Shown in pieces: positions 13,203-20,155 of a DNA stretch of 56,349 bases. Location of the stretch: UHGV virus genome UHGV-0011358; one strand, given 5' to 3'. The position numbers were made by a program, and so were the translations under genes. This DNA comes from a virus. The stretch's first letter is position 1; every line of letters begins with the position of its first letter. The notes below the pieces were generated by a model. That model did no database searches and was not told the DNA's origin. It was given only the letters and a program-made list of their open reading frames with translations.

Positions 13203-16200
13203 TTATCCTGAGAATGAACCAGAACCGCGCGACACTATGACTGTCGGCGAATTTATATAAGCCCCCTTGTCATTTTGAGCAGATACCTTAATTTTAACTG
13301 TAACGCCCCTGCTGGTTACTGCTGCTGAATGCATAACAAGGCGCTCCGTGCCATCCAGTGCTAAACCTTTTGATGAACCGCCAATTGTTATTGTGCAACC
13401 ACCAAAACCCTTAACGTTAGCCATAACGCAGATATGTCGGCTATACGCTGCGTCAGATGTGTCATTGTATGTTATTACTTTTTCTAACGCCCCATCCCTT
13501 AACGTGCTAACGTCAGAACCTGTGTACATGTTTGCAACATCACCGATAAAGGTTTTCGCCTCAAGTGAACCGGTAAACTTGCCGCTGTCTGCATGTATTT
13601 CACCCCTTACAACAACGTTGTTAAATTCTGATGCGCCGCTTTGTGTTATCCTCCAACCATTGGAACCGGGGACGAAGTTTGCTGATTTAATTTCATTGAC
13701 AATTTTAGCCATAGTAATGGAGGCATCTGCAATTTTAGCTGTCCCTATTGATGCATCCTTAATAAATGCCTCTTTCACATACATTGCGCCGTTAGTGACA
13801 TAGAAGGGCGATGTATATGCGCCGTTTGCCGCCGTCATTAACATAAAGCGATCAACAAGGAAAATACACTGCGACTGAAAGTTAGTGCCGTCACCAGTAA
13901 GGCCAAGCGACATACCTGTAGCGTATTTTACGCCATTGCTATCTGTGGCGAGCTTGATTGAATATGTCGCATCAACATTACCCCTAAAGTCGGTTAACGC
14001 TTTAGATGTCGTCTCTATTGCCGTCTTGTTCCCGTTAACGGTCACTGTTAGCTGATCAATTTTCGTTGACAACGCCTCGTCTGCCGTAGCCATTGTCTGC
14101 GACCATTCTGTAATACTTGAGTTTACTGATTCGAAAGACGCTGAGATCTGGCTAAATTTTTCCGCGCTTGATTCCTCATGCGTAGAGAGCGCCGTCGACA
14201 CTTCAGATACTTTTGAGTTGATCGTACTGGTAAGCGATGCGCTAAGGCCGCTTATTGCGTCCGCGCGTGCTTTTTTTTCGTCGGCGATGGCTTTGTCCAT
14301 CCTGGTGACGTTGCTTGTCACTTTATTATCAAGCGTGCTGACACTTGCGCTAACTTCGCTGATAGCTTGTCCTCTGGCGCTTGTTTCGTCAGCAATTACC
14401 TGATCAAGACGGTTTACGCTTGCTTCAGTCTTCTTATCAAGATTAGTGATCGATGCGTTTACACCGCTAATGGCTTCAGCCGTTGCTTTTTTCTCTTCAG
14501 CGATAACGTTGTCAATACGGTCAATTTTCGCGTTGGTTTCTCTGATTCCTTTCTTGTATTGGGCTGAAAGAGTAACACGCGTGTTGGTTTGAGCGATTGA
14601 GTTATTGATAAGTGCAATAGATGCGTTTTGCAGGCTTGCTTTTGCCTGATTTATTTCGTCGCTGTTTTTGCCAACATTATTTTCAACAGTGCCAAGATTT
14701 GCGCTGAGGCCTGATATTGCCTGAGCGCGGGCGCTTGATTCATCGGCAATTGCCTGATCAAGACGCTTAACGCTGGCGTTTGTGCTGTTCTCAAGCGTTG
14801 TTAAGTCTGCTTTAACCTCTGTTATTGCGTCGCTTCTTGCCTTCGTTTCGTCTGATATTGCTTTATCAAGGCGGGAAACGCTGGCATCTGTTTTCTTATC
14901 AAGGCTGTCTATTGATGCCTTCACGCCGCTAACGGCCTGTGCGCGGGCACTGGCCTCGTCAGCGATTGCCTGATCCAGGCGTTTAACGCTGGCGTCAGTT
15001 TTCTTATCAAGTGCCGAGATACTTGCGTTAACGTCACTGACCGCCTGTGTGCGGGCGTTCGTTTCATCTGCAATAGCCTGATCAAGCCTATTGACGCTGG
15101 CATCCGTTTTCTTGTCGAGATTGCTTATTGAGGCGTTCACACCGTTAATAGCTTCAGCGCGGGCACTAGCCTCGTCAGCCACTGCGCGTTCCACACTGGA
15201 GATCTGACCTTTAAGGTTGGAATCCATCGTGTTCATTTCTGCCGTGATGGTTTTCAGTGATTCAGCCGTTGCTTTTTTCTCTTCAGCGATAACGTTGTCA
15301 ATACGGTCAATTTCCGCTTTCGTTTCCGTTCTGCCTTTTTTGTACTGGGCGGTAAGGGTAACGCGCGTGTTTGTCTGTGCAAGCGAGTTGTTGATAAGCG
15401 CCAATGACGCGTTTTGCAGGCTTGCTTTTGCTTGCGCCAGTTCGCTGCCAACTTTTTCGCTGGACACTTCTAATAGGTCAATCCTGGACTCATGCTGACC
15501 AATATCATCGGCGTTTTCCTTAACTTTTTTGTAAAGATCTTCCGTTTCTTTTTTAAGTGTATCGGTGTCAGCTTTTATTGTTCCCGTTTCTGTGATCAGG
15601 TTGTCAGTGTCAGTCCTTAAATCTTCAGTTACGTTCGTAAGGTTATCAGTTGTAGTTTTGAGGTTGTCAGTAGCTGTTTTCAGTTCTTCCGCAACACCTT
15701 CGATAACATCGGTGCGGTCGCCTAGATCTTTGATGTCACCAATCATTTCCTTGAACTGTTCCGACCCCATGACATCCTTCATCACGTAGTCACTGATTTC
15801 ATCAAAATTCTCTGTCGGCTTACCTGACGCCTCTACAAAGTCAGACACGCCAAAAGCATTGCGTGTGCGCACGTAAACGTAATAAGTATGGCCCGTGTTC
15901 ATTCCGCCGAACGTCCACTGATAACCACGTCCGGTATATTGTGCATTAGTGGGGACTAATGCCGGATTAGTGATTTGTGTTTCGCCAGCAAAATAGAATT
16001 CATAGCTTGTATCGCTGGTCAGAGTTGTTTTGCTGATTGGGTATACAGTAGCCTGAAATACGCCTGGTATCCAGTTAACACCAATTGGTTTTGAAGGTGC
16101 ACCAATAACGAGATCAACGATAGATTCCGCGCCTTTCATACCGGTATCATTGCGGGCGCGAACGCCTAAAGAGTATTGACCGCAATTCAGGCCATTAAAA

Positions 16201-18215
16201 TCATACCGGAATTCGGTCGTCTCATAACTGGCGACAACTTTGCTGTCTTCGTTATAAACACGTAATTCAAAGGTCAGGCGGTGAGTTGTGGTCTGCGTCA
16301 TCCACGACGCGGAGCACTGAACGGTTTCGGAACCAACATTCATTACCTTGAGGTTTTCAATGTTAGGAACACGGAAATGATTCAGCGTGTCGTTGTTGAT
16401 TTCGAAGACTGCGCCTTCATCAACTACGGCCTGTTTGTTAGGGTCGTGCTGTGCGGCTTCGATAGTGTATACGCTGTTATTTTCTGTTTCTGCTACGCTG
16501 GTGATCCTACATAAAACGGGTTTTGCTGCTTCAGTCGATACAGCAAAAACAGTGCCATTGCGAATCCATGCCGGGGCCGCAGCAAGGGTAATATTGTTTC
16601 CATTAACTCCGGTGATCTGGTGTTTTTTAAATTTACCATCGCTATCAAGTAAGCTGATGGTGTCACCAGCCGCGATATATTCAGAATCAACCTTGTCGAC
16701 CGTTATCACTTTGCCATTGTTCGCCACGATACGACCGCCTAAGCGAGCGCCTGCGCGGTTATTGTCGAGGATCTCGATGATATCCCCTGGTGTAAAGTGA
16801 ATGGCGTCACGGGCCATTTTAAACGTGAATTTTGACGGCTCGCGTTTTGCTGTTTCGATCAGCCATTTACCAGCGCGATAAGCCTGTCCGCGAGACGTGC
16901 ACCCGAACGCCTCTAGCGTGGTTTCGTTGTAGCCGTCGCGGGCGATTAGTTCATCGTCAGAAACGTATTCTTTTGACTGTTCCCAACCGTTACCCGGATC
17001 GGTCCAGGATACAATCACGGCGTTGTAGCACTCCGCGCGGGCAAGGCTCGAACGGGTGAATGCACCATCTACGACATTTGCGTTCGTGATAGTTGCAATC
17101 GGATCTTGTGGCGCATCAATCATCACTGTAAGACGTTGCCCGTCCCATAACGCAATACCACGGAACATGCCAGCAATGTTATCCAGTAGGTCGCGGGCGC
17201 TCATTTGCTCCGTAATGTAAGCGTTAAGCGTCATGCGAGGTTCAAGGCCACCATAGCCATCATCAACCAACTGATCGCAGTATTGGGAGAGCACGTACAA
17301 AGCGCCATCATCAACATCAATGTAACCAGCATGTCGAGCAAGCCCGAAGCGCTCGTTTTTAACCAGATACCGGAAAATCCACGCAGGGTTATTGGTGTAC
17401 GCTTTTTTGAATCCACCAAGCCATAAGCCCGAATATGTGCGCGTTTCTGTGTTGTAGTTATCAGGCACGTCAACAATCAGGCCGCGAAGATGATAGGTGC
17501 GGGTAGGTGTATCAGTGTACTGGTCATGGTCAATCACAGCGCCAGCTACAGCGGTATGAGGATAAGACAGATTATCGTCTATGATTTCGCTGTAACTACT
17601 CCACCGCGTATCATTCTGCAATAGATCGCTGTTGCTGTCTGCTGTTATGCGACGAATGCGAATATCAAACGGTTTTTCATCCGGCGCTTTGATAATGTGA
17701 GCTTCCAGATATTCACCGCTTTGTTTACCGGGGCCAATGTGTATATCTTTAATCAGCGACCATGTAGAAGATGATGACGGTTTAACGTCAACCATCAACA
17801 TAACGGATGTATTGTATTGATTGCCCTTGTCGTCTGACTGAACGAGAGCGTCAACACCAAGATTCAACCTGACGCGGGTAACGTTTGGATCTGAAACAGT
17901 CCTGATTATTGGCGTGTCGTGAGTTACCTTTGCGTTGACAATAACGGTTGACTCGATGGCATTAAAACCATTAATCGGCGATTGGTCAGCCGTGCCGTTT
18001 CGCCAGGCTATACTAATCCCCGGTATTGATGTATTCCCGTTTGCGTCAGTAACAGGCGTGTCATTAAGCATCACGTTATTCAGTGGTGCTTTCTGGTTTA
18101 CCGGACCATATATCGGCCCCTCACTGAGAATATCTAAGACACGATAAAACTGTTTATGATACAGGTTATCGTTCAATAATGTTGGTGTTTTGGCTTTGCC
18201 GCCGCCGCTACTCAT
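13203..18215 (-). CDS. J: central tail fiber / host specificity protein J
   Basis: 1670 aa; N-terminal two thirds align by eye with lambda J; has an added coiled-coil repeat insertion. Confidence 0.9.
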   Translation of the reverse strand: MSSGGGKAKTPTLLNDNLYHKQFYRVLDILSEGPIYGPVNQKAPLNNVMLNDTPVTDANGNTSIPGISIAWRNGTADQSPINGFNAIESTVIVNAKVTHDTPIIRTVSDPNVTRVRLNLGVDALVQSDDKGNQYNTSVMLMVDVKPSSSSTWSLIKDIHIGPGKQSGEYLEAHIIKAPDEKPFDIRIRRITADSNSDLLQNDTRWSSYSEIIDDNLSYPHTAVAGAVIDHDQYTDTPTRTYHLRGLIVDVPDNYNTETRTYSGLWLGGFKKAYTNNPAWIFRYLVKNERFGLARHAGYIDVDDGALYVLSQYCDQLVDDGYGGLEPRMTLNAYITEQMSARDLLDNIAGMFRGIALWDGQRLTVMIDAPQDPIATITNANVVDGAFTRSSLARAECYNAVIVSWTDPGNGWEQSKEYVSDDELIARDGYNETTLEAFGCTSRGQAYRAGKWLIETAKREPSKFTFKMARDAIHFTPGDIIEILDNNRAGARLGGRIVANNGKVITVDKVDSEYIAAGDTISLLDSDGKFKKHQITGVNGNNITLAAAPAWIRNGTVFAVSTEAAKPVLCRITSVAETENNSVYTIEAAQHDPNKQAVVDEGAVFEINNDTLNHFRVPNIENLKVMNVGSETVQCSASWMTQTTTHRLTFELRVYNEDSKVVASYETTEFRYDFNGLNCGQYSLGVRARNDTGMKGAESIVDLVIGAPSKPIGVNWIPGVFQATVYPISKTTLTSDTSYEFYFAGETQITNPALVPTNAQYTGRGYQWTFGGMNTGHTYYVYVRTRNAFGVSDFVEASGKPTENFDEISDYVMKDVMGSEQFKEMIGDIKDLGDRTDVIEGVAEELKTATDNLKTTTDNLTNVTEDLRTDTDNLITETGTIKADTDTLKKETEDLYKKVKENADDIGQHESRIDLLEVSSEKVGSELAQAKASLQNASLALINNSLAQTNTRVTLTAQYKKGRTETKAEIDRIDNVIAEEKKATAESLKTITAEMNTMDSNLKGQISSVERAVADEASARAEAINGVNASISNLDKKTDASVNRLDQAIADETNARTQAVSDVNASISALDKKTDASVKRLDQAIADEASARAQAVSGVKASIDSLDKKTDASVSRLDKAISDETKARSDAITEVKADLTTLENSTNASVKRLDQAIADESSARAQAISGLSANLGTVENNVGKNSDEINQAKASLQNASIALINNSIAQTNTRVTLSAQYKKGIRETNAKIDRIDNVIAEEKKATAEAISGVNASITNLDKKTEASVNRLDQVIADETSARGQAISEVSASVSTLDNKVTSNVTRMDKAIADEKKARADAISGLSASLTSTINSKVSEVSTALSTHEESSAEKFSQISASFESVNSSITEWSQTMATADEALSTKIDQLTVTVNGNKTAIETTSKALTDFRGNVDATYSIKLATDSNGVKYATGMSLGLTGDGTNFQSQCIFLVDRFMLMTAANGAYTSPFYVTNGAMYVKEAFIKDASIGTAKIADASITMAKIVNEIKSANFVPGSNGWRITQSGASEFNNVVVRGEIHADSGKFTGSLEAKTFIGDVANMYTGSDVSTLRDGALEKVITYNDTSDAAYSRHICVMANVKGFGGCTITIGGSSKGLALDGTERLVMHSAAVTSRGVTVKIKVSAQNDKGAYINSPTVIVSRGSGSFSG

Positions 18216-18228
18216 GGCTTTTCTCCTG

Positions 18229-18765
18229 TTAACTTACAACGTCTAAGGCGTCTTTGTTGTTGCTTGTGTCTATGCCTAACGATCCGACGTTTGAACCTAT
18301 TTTCATTTCACCCAACAGGATTGGCACTGGCCTGCCCTGTCCTACCTTGTTTTCAATGCTGGTGTAGGTGTTGTTCGTTATGGTGTTATCTTGTGCGCTT
18401 TCTGCTGATGTTTTTACCTTCATGTTGCGTGACATAAAGATTGAAAACGCAACACCAACAACTGAAACGCCAATCATGATCCAGCCAAGTACACCGATTT
18501 CTAAACCGCCAAGCCCACCCTCTACCACTGGCGCAATAATGACGGTAGTCCCATCCGGGTATTTACTATTAACCGCTGCTGGCGCGGTATTTTCGTCATA
18601 ATCTTTTCCGGCAATTCGTAAGCGCAAAGGGGTGCTTAAAAACGCCTTCTTGAATTCATAATTCTGCGCAACCAATAAGCTAAGCCCCTGCGCTGGTGTT
18701 TCAACGTTTAAACACACCTTGCCGTAATATCTTCGAAGATTGCCCGTAAATCTAAATTTGAGCAT
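18229..18765 (-). CDS. I: tail assembly protein I
   Basis: C-terminal PVPILLGEMKIGSNVGS matches the lambda I motif; position between K and J. Confidence 0.7.
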   Translation of the reverse strand: MLKFRFTGNLRRYYGKVCLNVETPAQGLSLLVAQNYEFKKAFLSTPLRLRIAGKDYDENTAPAAVNSKYPDGTTVIIAPVVEGGLGGLEIGVLGWIMIGVSVVGVAFSIFMSRNMKVKTSAESAQDNTITNNTYTSIENKVGQGRPVPILLGEMKIGSNVGSLGIDTSNNKDALDVVS

Positions 18766-19445
18766 TTGTCAGATCTCCATATTGAATGCGTTTGTCGAAC
18801 ATACGCGGGCCGCATTTGCTCGCGGCGGCTTAACAGTCCGGCATTGTCATGATGCAAAACAGTGTTATCGCCCAGGTAAATCATCGCGTGACATGGGTCA
18901 GCGCCTTTAAACGGCTGACGGATAATTACGTCACCTGGCTGAATACTTTGCGCGTCAACCATGAAAAACCCGTTCAATGGCAGGTTTTTTATGTACAGGT
19001 TTTCCCCACGCAGCCACCACCCATCGTGGCGCTCAAAGTCCGGTAGATCCACGCCGCAAAGGTGATAGGAGTCACGAAAAAGCGAGTAGCAGTCTGTTTT
19101 CCCGTGCTCAAATTTACGACCTAACAGGTGCGCTACCGGGCGGAATTTTCTTACCCTGCCACCGGAACATAAAAACCACGGTAGGCCGGAAATAACCTGC
19201 TGTTGTCGATCCCGTGCTGACAATACCAATGAATCGTCAGTATGGGAGTGAAAAACGGCTGTTATAACGCCTAATTCGTCGGCCTTGATATAATCGTCAG
19301 GCGAGATTTTAAAGCTGTTGTGAGGCGTTTCAGACACGTTTAAACACGGGTAAAAATAATCGTTATCTATCACCAGCCCGCATACTTCCTCGTCAGGGTG
19401 GGCCGCTGCATAGCGAATCATTTTATCTTCAATCGCCATAATCAA
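18708..19445 (-). CDS. K: tail assembly protein K (MPN and NlpC/P60 domains)
   Basis: 245 aa; lambda K-like by eye; gene order L-K-I-J. Confidence 0.8.
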   Translation of the reverse strand: MIMAIEDKMIRYAAAHPDEEVCGLVIDNDYFYPCLNVSETPHNSFKISPDDYIKADELGVITAVFHSHTDDSLVLSARDRQQQVISGLPWFLCSGGRVRKFRPVAHLLGRKFEHGKTDCYSLFRDSYHLCGVDLPDFERHDGWWLRGENLYIKNLPLNGFFMVDAQSIQPGDVIIRQPFKGADPCHAMIYLGDNTVLHHDNAGLLSRREQMRPAYVRQTHSIWRSDKCSNLDLRAIFEDITARCV

Positions 19446-20155
19446 CCCACCTTGCTGGATCCCGGGAAACAGGAAATTGGTAACGGATTAGGACGCGGAA
19501 AACGCAAACGGCAACCGCTTAGGCGGTGGCTGCATTTATCCAGCTTTGGATCACTGGTTGGCTCGTCTTTGTCAGTAGCTACGGGGCCGCCACTGTATCT
19601 GCAACCGTCGCCGCGATATTGCCACTGGCAAACGTCAGCGAGAATTGTGCGCCCAGGGATAACCGCTTTATCTGCATCAATTGGCGTTGACAGTTCATAT
19701 TGCACCTGGTCTGCTGTTTCTTCGCTCATCGCCTCAACGACGTAAAAAGATACAGCCTCAATAGATGGATCTGCATCTGGATTGCCGTTAGGGAAGTTAA
19801 CGGCGTCCAGGTATTTTACTTCCACCTGGCGGCGCGTAACTTTCATTCCTCGCAGGTCGTTGAAATCGTTATTCATCCCCGTAATGAGTCCGCCAATGTT
19901 GGCAACAACCATTTGCGGGCGCGAGTAAACACCTTCGTTTTTCATTTCGAAGCCAGTAGCCTCGATTGGGTAGCTGTTGTAAGTCACTCCCTTCCAGATA
20001 ACCGGGCCGTAATAGCCATTCGCGCCGGAATGGAAGCGGATAACCTCGCCACCCAGGGGCGTTAGGTCTAATTCAAACAAGTCAATTACTGCGCCGACTC
20101 CGGCATCGACGGAATCAATAATCATTTCTGTAGGTATGCTGCGCATTTTTTTCAC
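19442..20155 (-). CDS. L: minor tail protein L
   Basis: Strong by-eye match to lambda L (VEVKYLDAVNFPNGN, Cys-rich C-terminus). Confidence 0.9.
   Translation of the reverse strand: MKKMRSIPTEMIIDSVDAGVGAVIDLFELDLTPLGGEVIRFHSGANGYYGPVIWKGVTYNSYPIEATGFEMKNEGVYSRPQMVVANIGGLITGMNNDFNDLRGMKVTRRQVEVKYLDAVNFPNGNPDADPSIEAVSFYVVEAMSEETADQVQYELSTPIDADKAVIPGRTILADVCQWQYRGDGCRYSGGPVATDKDEPTSDPKLDKCSHRLSGCRLRFPRPNPLPISCFPGSSKVG

Follow-up and report, generated by a model that had tools for sequence, protein, structure and literature searches.

In phage lambda, the structures of the tail tip protein J (gpJ; PDB 8IYK, 8XCI) place an alpha-helical shaft between FNIII-2 and the beta-prism central straight fibre, and this shaft flips and partly refolds into beta-sheet upon LamB binding. 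It spans residues 809-861 and forms a 53-residue three-helix bundle (PMC11101478). A nearer set of relatives, the J proteins of the mEpimmI group of coliphages, were reported to differ in size and to hold 'repeats of different length (positions 950-1475)' (PMC11893012). Here, we explore the J-type central fibre gene of the virus genome UHGV-0011358, of which the whole analysed stretch of DNA (56,349 nucleotides, nt) is hereafter called the window. We consider it probable that this protein, from a temperate coliphage of the mEpimmI group, is built around a length-variable trimeric coiled-coil spacer that carries a LamB-type receptor-binding tip.

The open reading frame (ORF) encodes 1670 amino acids (aa), as the initial annotation of this DNA (made from the letters alone) had noted, and the lambda protein, put there at about 1130 aa, has 1132. 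The window J matched PHROG 31 ('central tail fiber J') and the Pfam domains FNIII-A_GpJ (aa 88-214), Phage-tail_3 (aa 335-492), Ig_J (aa 609-707), Ig_J_second (aa 709-811) and Phage_Tail_Tip (aa 1399-1546); at aa 812-1398 Pfam gave no above-threshold domain. In a phmmer search of PDB chains, aa 1-851 aligned with residues 1-858 of lambda J in 8IYK (E 1.8e-179). Since the score against the NCBIfam model lambda_TipJ (709.8 bits) falls under the curated cut-off (1950), we regard the protein as a homologue of lambda J and not as its equivalent. Two alignment blocks were obtained with BLASTP against lambda J as well as with phmmer: aa 1-850 align with lambda 1-857 (38% identity) and aa 1396-1613 with lambda 841-1050 (BLASTP E 4e-8), the flanks of the window shaft falling on lambda residues 810-857 and 841-865. 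As the lambda shaft is where both blocks meet, the additional ~560 aa are best described, on these alignments, as a lambda-type shaft expanded from 53 to ~600 residues (approximately eleven-fold) and not as a foreign insertion. Thus, of the 'coiled-coil repeat insertion' first proposed, the coiled-coil character stood (see below), but the insertion gave way to the growth of a short shaft that was already in place. The remainder of the protein is collinear with lambda gpJ, and its hub and FNIII/Ig part (aa 1-802) shares 90-93% identity with the J proteins of the mEpimmI group.

The expanded shaft is organised in two super-modules (262 aa), each made of a 78-aa module A (A1 and A2) followed by 36-aa (108-nt) units, five in the first and two in the second (Table 1). 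These seven clear copies show 33-77% mutual identity as protein and 45-71% as DNA; a 5-aa linker sits between block 1 and module A2. A degenerate 36-mer makes up the second half of module A, which also has conserved glycines (G923/G961 and G1182/G1223). The initial annotation had ascribed the whole extra part to repeats of the DKKTDASVxRLDQAIADE..ARAQA type, which are real in the form of the 36-aa units, but a heptad zone, the two modules A and a non-repetitive helix (aa 1332-1398) make up the rest of it. At the DNA level, the A1/A2 pair corresponds to a duplication in which 14475-14648 recurs at 15261-15434 (repeat finder: 174 nt, 84% identity, spacing of 786 nt or 262 aa), and the ~190 bp recurrence noticed earlier had been located correctly to within ~20 nt. 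Exact repeats in the gene reach 53 nt (15261-15313 and 14475-14527), with another one of 23 nt, as against a maximum of 14 nt over 30 codon-shuffled J genes. Families of 108-nt repeats were located at 14230-15180, and Tandem Repeats Finder reported a period-108 array together with a period-21 array (15640-15680). A self dot-plot, proposed at the outset as the check and made here with the protein, gave 30% identical residues at an offset of 262 aa and 29% at 36 aa (aa 800-1400) versus at most 16% in 100 shuffles, and nothing comparable was found in aa 1-799 or aa 1401-1670.

Table 1. Positions of the J gene, its parts and its neighbours in the window (aa numbers refer to the window J protein).
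Feature	Position	Strand	Basis or remark
J-type tail tip / central fibre gene, 1670 aa	13203-18215	minus	ORF, Pfam, PHROG, lambda J alignment
Hub domains and two FNIII/Ig domains, aa 1-802	15810-18215	minus	collinear with lambda J 1-~810
Expanded alpha-helical shaft, aa 803-1398	14022-15809	minus	replaces the 53-aa lambda shaft (residues 809-861)
Heptad zone, aa 821-919	15459-15755	minus	T-x-x-L-x-x-x units, unbroken 7-residue register
Module A1, aa 920-997	15225-15458	minus	contains the upstream one of the two duplicated DNA segments (15261-15434)
Block 1, five 36-aa units, aa 998-1177	14685-15224	minus	periodicity 3.60
Module A2, aa 1183-1259	14439-14669	minus	contains the downstream one of the two duplicated DNA segments (14475-14648)
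Block 2, two 36-aa units, aa 1260-1331	14223-14438	minus	repeat and periodicity analysis
Non-repetitive helical segment, aa 1332-1398	14022-14222	minus	leads to the beta-prism fibre; periodicity 3.56
Phage_Tail_Tip domain, aa 1399-1546	13578-14021	minus	Pfam E 1.6e-34; counterpart of lambda central straight fibre
C-terminal receptor-binding region, aa 1547-1670	13206-13577	minus	LamB type by similarity
Junction, window without four heptads (84 nt) versus NRZ96606	15610-15623	minus	14-nt identity
Junction, window without six units (648 nt) versus NRZ96606	14956-14972	minus	17-nt CAGGCAATCGCTGACGA, encodes QAIADE
Phage_tail_L gene	19442-20155		Pfam domain
K-like tail gene	18708-19445	minus	Prok-JAB and NlpC/P60 domains
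I-like ORF	18229-18765		precedes J
Lipoprotein ORF, 82 aa	12923-13171	plus	lipobox LTGC
Side tail fibre gene, 1106 aa	9425-12745	minus	C-terminal Peptidase_S74 chaperone domain
Antisense ORF within J	15217-15498	plus	
Antisense ORF within J	13348-13803		
Antisense ORF within J	16387-16800	plus	

Several lines of evidence mark this region as probably helical. Proline is absent over 584 residues (aa 815-1398), which are rich in A, S, T, D, E and K. In the heptad zone the hydrophobicity spectrum peaks at a period of 3.50 residues, and in the 36-mers at 3.60 (none of 200 shuffles matched the power, in line with the coiled-coil character first suggested), and the periodicity of the whole shaft is 3.58. 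The non-repetitive segment behaves likewise (3.56, again with no shuffle out of 200 reaching its power), and no such peak was seen in the control regions taken from the hub and the C-terminus. We parsed 18 J proteins (those of mEpimmI phages and Escherichia coli prophages, the window included) with profiles of the 36-aa unit and of module A. Among the 90 distinct units that they contain, positions 8, 11, 15, 26, 29 and 33 are always I, L, V or M, position 36 is so in 89%, and position 4 is T or V; E18 and A21 are invariant, R22 and A25 conserved at 98%. The resulting core spacing (3-4-3-4-4-3-4-3-4-4, i.e. 7+11+7+11 residues) places ten core positions in every 36. A bundle with a periodicity of 18/5 (3.6) has essentially no supercoil. 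AlphaFold2, run on the single sequence of aa 790-1420 as a monomer and used for secondary structure only, returned helix nearly throughout at low confidence (predicted local distance difference test, pLDDT, 62; predicted template modelling score, pTM, 0.21), with breaks or low confidence at aa 907-951 and 1174-1192 (the starts of the A modules) and at aa 1345-1349. At the level of homology, aa 1243-1420 resemble residues 914-1088 of the F2 pyocin PyoF10 (E 8.7e-7, a weak match in a low-complexity region) and the 36-aa units resemble the repeats at residues 878-1025 of T1 gp33. Sub-threshold Pfam hits to the shaft (DUF7624, DUF4806, SF-assemblin, DUF1664 and 'FAM81B' PF28217) were set aside as generic coiled-coil similarity.

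The J gene is 81-86% identical as DNA (coverage up to 100%) to those of mEp554, mEp044, mEp010, mEp013, mEp515, mEp021 and MagusPhagus, and it found partial matches in prophages of 43 out of 5426 complete E. coli genomes (at best 88.6% identity over 73% of the gene). Across the 18 homologues J ranges from 1350 to 1935 aa, with 2-13 units and module A present once or twice, which bears out the repeat-number variation that the initial annotation had raised as a possibility. Written as units in block 1 + block 2, the window has 5+2, mEp010 4+4, mEp013 3+0, the phages mEp021, mEp044 and mEp554 7+4, and the E. coli prophage NRZ96606 11+2; mEp515 and MagusPhagus hold 4. Block 1 thus spans two to eleven units among relatives and block 2 goes from absent to four. 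The heptad zone varies from 91 to 154 aa, always by multiples of 7 aa. The smallest arrangement (STEC308 and M15) retains two 36-aa units, one module A and the heptad zone, and none of the 18 has lost the expanded shaft or approaches the 1132 aa of lambda.

Module A1 is 87-100% identical to A1 of other phages, and A2 to A2 86-100% in five of six copies (the diverged, partial A2 of mEp013 reaches 57-60%), versus ~70% between A1 and A2. Because A1 groups with A1 and A2 with A2, the duplication predates the divergence of these phages and is ancestral to the group. The internal duplication described initially is therefore genuine but old; a recent origin in the window genome was ruled out by the orthology of A1 and A2 across phages.

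An exhaustive search of representative sequences with the shaft returned 133 clusters at E <= 1e-3, a count that overstates the number of relatives because the weaker matches include unrelated coiled-coil proteins such as kinases. The best matches were other long J-like proteins (1484-2411 aa, e.g., of 1922 and 2411 aa) with related helical arrays. A word-indexed protein search with the shaft gave at least 15 matches, many of them to partial proteins, and tells little about how widely it occurs. Many of the public homologues of shaft and tip, among the matches listed, are annotated 'partial' and start within the repeat array, which suggests that short-read assemblies often break in the J repeats. 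That database homologues so often stop at contig ends, and that the window is itself a metagenome scaffold, could point to a duplication or a unit count produced by mis-assembly. We hold this to be extremely improbable, as the repeats are too diverged to collapse or to be mis-joined (see the unit identities and the longest exact repeat above), the ORF is intact, the order 'A, units, A, units' recurs in finished phage genomes and in complete E. coli chromosomes, and the same protein is present on 3 contigs.

Recent changes in the array were followed through pairwise gene alignments and mapping of the junctions. The J genes of MIN12 and 2-331 are identical over most of their length and differ by one 108-nt unit, with 14 nt of identity at the junction. 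Those of mEp515 and mEp021 are 100% identical in all aligned columns save for a single gap of 1002 nt (334 aa), which equals the exact offset from A1 to A2 in mEp021 and has a 35-nt junction identity common to units 4 and 11. (Both phages have an HNH endonuclease gene between I and J, which is absent from the window.) The shaft DNA of the window is 100% identical to that of NRZ96606 except for two in-frame gaps of 84 and 648 nt (junctions in Table 1), in genes whose hubs are 83-94% identical and whose tips only 44-60%. NRZ96606 is a prophage of a German clinical E. coli, and a sharp mosaic boundary lies on either side of the repeats. Near-identical alleles thus differ by whole-unit indels, and the junctions indicate that the number of units changes in frame and in structural register, through events at short homologies within the conserved 'AIADE' core.

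Among the 36-mers of the window, exact identity in register extends over 13 nt at most, and the DNA identity between units of one genome stays at or below 81% in all 18 genomes. A hypermutable (contingency-like) or slippage-prone array was ruled out on these identities and on the 45-71% found within the window; the alignments speak for rare short-homology events as the route by which units are gained or lost. A literature search for repeat-number variation in J coiled coils gave nothing more specific than PMC11893012.

The phages mEp021 and mEp515 are plaque-forming and OmpA-dependent, and mEp010, mEp013, mEp044 and mEp554 require LamB (PMC11893012). The last 124 aa of the window J are 82-85% identical to those of mEp044, mEp554 and mEp013, 69% to mEp010, and gave no match to mEp021 or mEp515. 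Between the J and side-fibre genes, the other strand encodes an 82-aa lipoprotein, which has no Pfam match and is ~95% identical to Lpp010 of mEp010, a superinfection-exclusion lipoprotein reported to exclude LamB-dependent phages including lambda (PMC11893012). Because the tip resembles LamB-type tips and the adjacent lipoprotein is so close to Lpp010, LamB is the likely receptor of the window phage. LamB-type tips occur on 3+0, 5+2 and 7+4 shafts, and 7+4 shafts are seen with OmpA-type as well as with LamB-type tips; the length of the shaft does not depend on the type of tip.

The repeats could alternatively form a neutral, recombination-prone linker with no length function, in which they persist because a coiled coil tolerates in-register indels, and offer mainly crossover sites for the swapping of tips. 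The contrast between the identical shafts and the diverged hubs and tips of the window and NRZ96606 would fit this, as would the common array that mEp021 and mEp044 join to different tips, the missing link between unit number and receptor type, and a J length that does not significantly follow that of the side fibre (statistics below). We nevertheless find neutrality decidedly unlikely. The protein sequence of the units is conserved (see E18, A21, R22 and A25 above) despite DNA identities of 45-71%, a combination that argues for purifying selection on structure, and none of the 18 homologues falls below two units, one module A and the heptad zone. A role in recombination is, moreover, compatible with a spacer.

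We reason that lengthening of the central fibre, as the initial annotation had suggested, is the most likely consequence of the repeats. In the spacer that we favour, the ~600 residues would form one bundle, with ~100 residues of canonical heptads followed by the two super-modules (module A plus 36-aa units), and would connect the FNIII domains, which close the tail tip, with the beta-prism fibre and the receptor-binding domain, as the 53-residue bundle does in lambda. At 3.6 residues per turn the bundle should be almost unsupercoiled. If extended (0.15 nm per residue), it would measure ~90 nm and hold the LamB-type tip far below the tail cone; the shafts of mEp021 and mEp515 would then differ by ~50 nm, and both phages are viable despite this difference of 334 aa. 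The length changes in quanta, which are 7 or 14 aa, one unit of 36 aa, or an entire super-module, through recombination or slippage between identities of 14-35 nt in the 'AIADE..AR' core of the unit, and since in-register indels preserve the hydrophobic seam, every variant could still form a continuous bundle. One shaft type is joined to different tips and one tip to different shaft lengths. The likeliest benefit of length would be to reach outer-membrane proteins through O-antigen or capsule, or to match the reach of the side fibres.

Some results weigh against a spacer of this kind. In its first half, module A shows no significant periodicity of the coiled-coil type, and the predicted helix breaks fall in this same part, so that the shaft may be interrupted, hinged or furnished with small non-helical inserts. 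The low-confidence AlphaFold2 monomer described above is the sole model of the shaft. J length and the length of the adjacent side fibre are not significantly correlated (r = 0.33, p = 0.2, n = 16). Finally, the tails of mEpimmI phages measure ~130 nm, and the accessible portion of their description mentions no conspicuously long tip fibre (PMC11893012).

The same helix breaks (one at the start of each module A) and the same silence about a long fibre in the accessible text would suit a compact fold, in which the helices turn back at these points and pack into a bundle of six or nine antiparallel helices; the fibre would then fall far short of 90 nm, and additional repeats would contribute thickness or stiffness, not reach. 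Chain-reversing six-chain coiled coils do exist in phage fibres, e.g., in the distal domain of lambda Stf (PMC12617516). The three segments that would have to pack against each other are, however, unmatched in length (~100, 250 and 215 aa) and vary independently among relatives, the forms with a single module A would bring the receptor-binding tip back to the tail cone, and the two ends of the region align to both ends of the parallel lambda shaft. Given the independent variation and the existence of single-module forms, we judge a fold-back to be quite improbable.

Module A could alternatively be a docking site, arranged in one or two tiers, on a long shaft that serves mainly to carry other virion proteins, a possibility that does not exclude a spacer. 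In the F2 pyocin, the J homologue has a long shaft with a Gly-induced kink, to which three trimers of the side fibre attach and where they form a six-helix bundle with the shaft (PMC13455828). The window shaft is homologous to that of the pyocin; no part of its array is better conserved than module A (87-100%), which lacks clean periodicity, lies at the AlphaFold2 breaks and has conserved glycines; and the gene of a 1106-aa side fibre follows directly downstream of J. This fibre, however, has no similarity to PyoF13, the pyocin side fibre with its OB/stem anchor, of which our comparison found no counterpart in the window; its N-terminal 237 aa resemble instead the anchor of Klebsiella phage depolymerases (7VYV, 7LZJ). 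Moreover, the pyocin kink aligns within a 36-mer and not within module A, and viable relatives carry one or two copies of module A together with the same kinds of downstream fibre genes. Docking as the main purpose of the shaft is thus unlikely. Short 'KTSETNAK' repeats of its own were seen in the side fibre at aa ~150-200.

The spacer can be phrased in a bolder form, which we consider doubtful: a straight three-helix rod of 18/5 type, ~90 nm long (about two-thirds of the tail), with quanta of 7, 36 and ~262-334 residues set by short-homology recombination, which would match the thickness of O-antigen or capsule or the reach of the side fibres, and with modules A as hinges or collapse points that relay the receptor signal over a ten-fold distance. 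Receptor binding at the tip of J must reach the tail cone in order to open it, and lambda relays this through a 53-residue shaft that flips and refolds. Viable phages whose shaft lengths range over ~580 residues would offer a natural test of how the signal travels and what fibre length is for, with mEp021 and mEp515 as a natural isogenic pair for length. The indel rules (multiples of 7 and 36 residues) could also guide the engineering of fibre length or the swapping of tips in lambda-like vectors. The discovery is in itself modest; it would become more interesting should a ~90-nm rod indeed have to carry the receptor signal.

The genes around J follow the lambda-type order of the tail module (L, K, I, J), and the K-like ORF overlaps the I-like one by 58 nt, the usual lambda-like arrangement. 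The antisense ORFs within J (93-151 aa) are probably a mechanical product of the codon bias of the repeats, and antisense terminators predicted by ARNold are annotated within the J genes of mEp554 and mEp044. No tRNA or tmRNA genes were found in the whole window. It covers nearly all of a 56,530-bp metagenome scaffold (ERZ28615892), and as this size is close to that of mEpimmI genomes (53-55 kb), it is probably a complete or near-complete phage genome.

Fibrous shafts whose length varies by whole repeats, with altered reach, are familiar from the adenovirus fibre, the stalks of trimeric autotransporter adhesins, the blocks of streptococcal M-protein and T4 fibritin. These trimeric or dimeric structures are analogies only, and we know of no homology between any of them and the window shaft. 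Among J-type proteins, gp33 of phage T1 (PDB 9L9P, chain S; PMC11945409) has a few 'IADETxAR...' repeats that are like the 36-aa units, but it is a protein of 1172 aa with ~4 repeats only, in a region absent from the resolved structure; its C-terminus was predicted to form an elongated alpha/beta fibre of ~37 nm (PMC11945409). The J homologue of the F2 pyocin, PyoF10 (PDB 25VF; PMC13455828), has an 'exceptionally long' shaft that was solved as a three-stranded coiled coil. Unlike the window J, its whole fibre region amounts to ~385 aa, with one kink and one insertion domain that dock the side fibres, and neither an array of 36-aa units nor a copy-number series has been described for it. Lambda gpJ has the shaft at the same place, but at 53 aa, whereas that of the window has ~600 aa, is repetitive, and varies in copy number among relatives.

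The closest system remains the mEpimmI group (mEp021, mEp010, mEp013, mEp044, mEp515 and mEp554), which has the same repeat architecture and the same gene order (L, K, I, J, lipoprotein, side fibre), with the variable repeats flanked, as in the window, by a conserved N-terminal part and by a conserved stretch before the variable tip. The allele described here (5+2 units with a 126-aa heptad segment) is identical to none of the 17 relatives examined. The variable J repeats of this group, like long J-type shafts as such, are already published, but the earlier report did not assign the repeats to the alpha-helical shaft, nor did it analyse periodicity, unit counts or indel junctions (PMC11893012). 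To this the present analysis adds the placement of the repeats in the lambda shaft, their nested, register-preserving organisation in steps of 7, 36 and 262 residues, and recent indels of whole units with mapped junctions.

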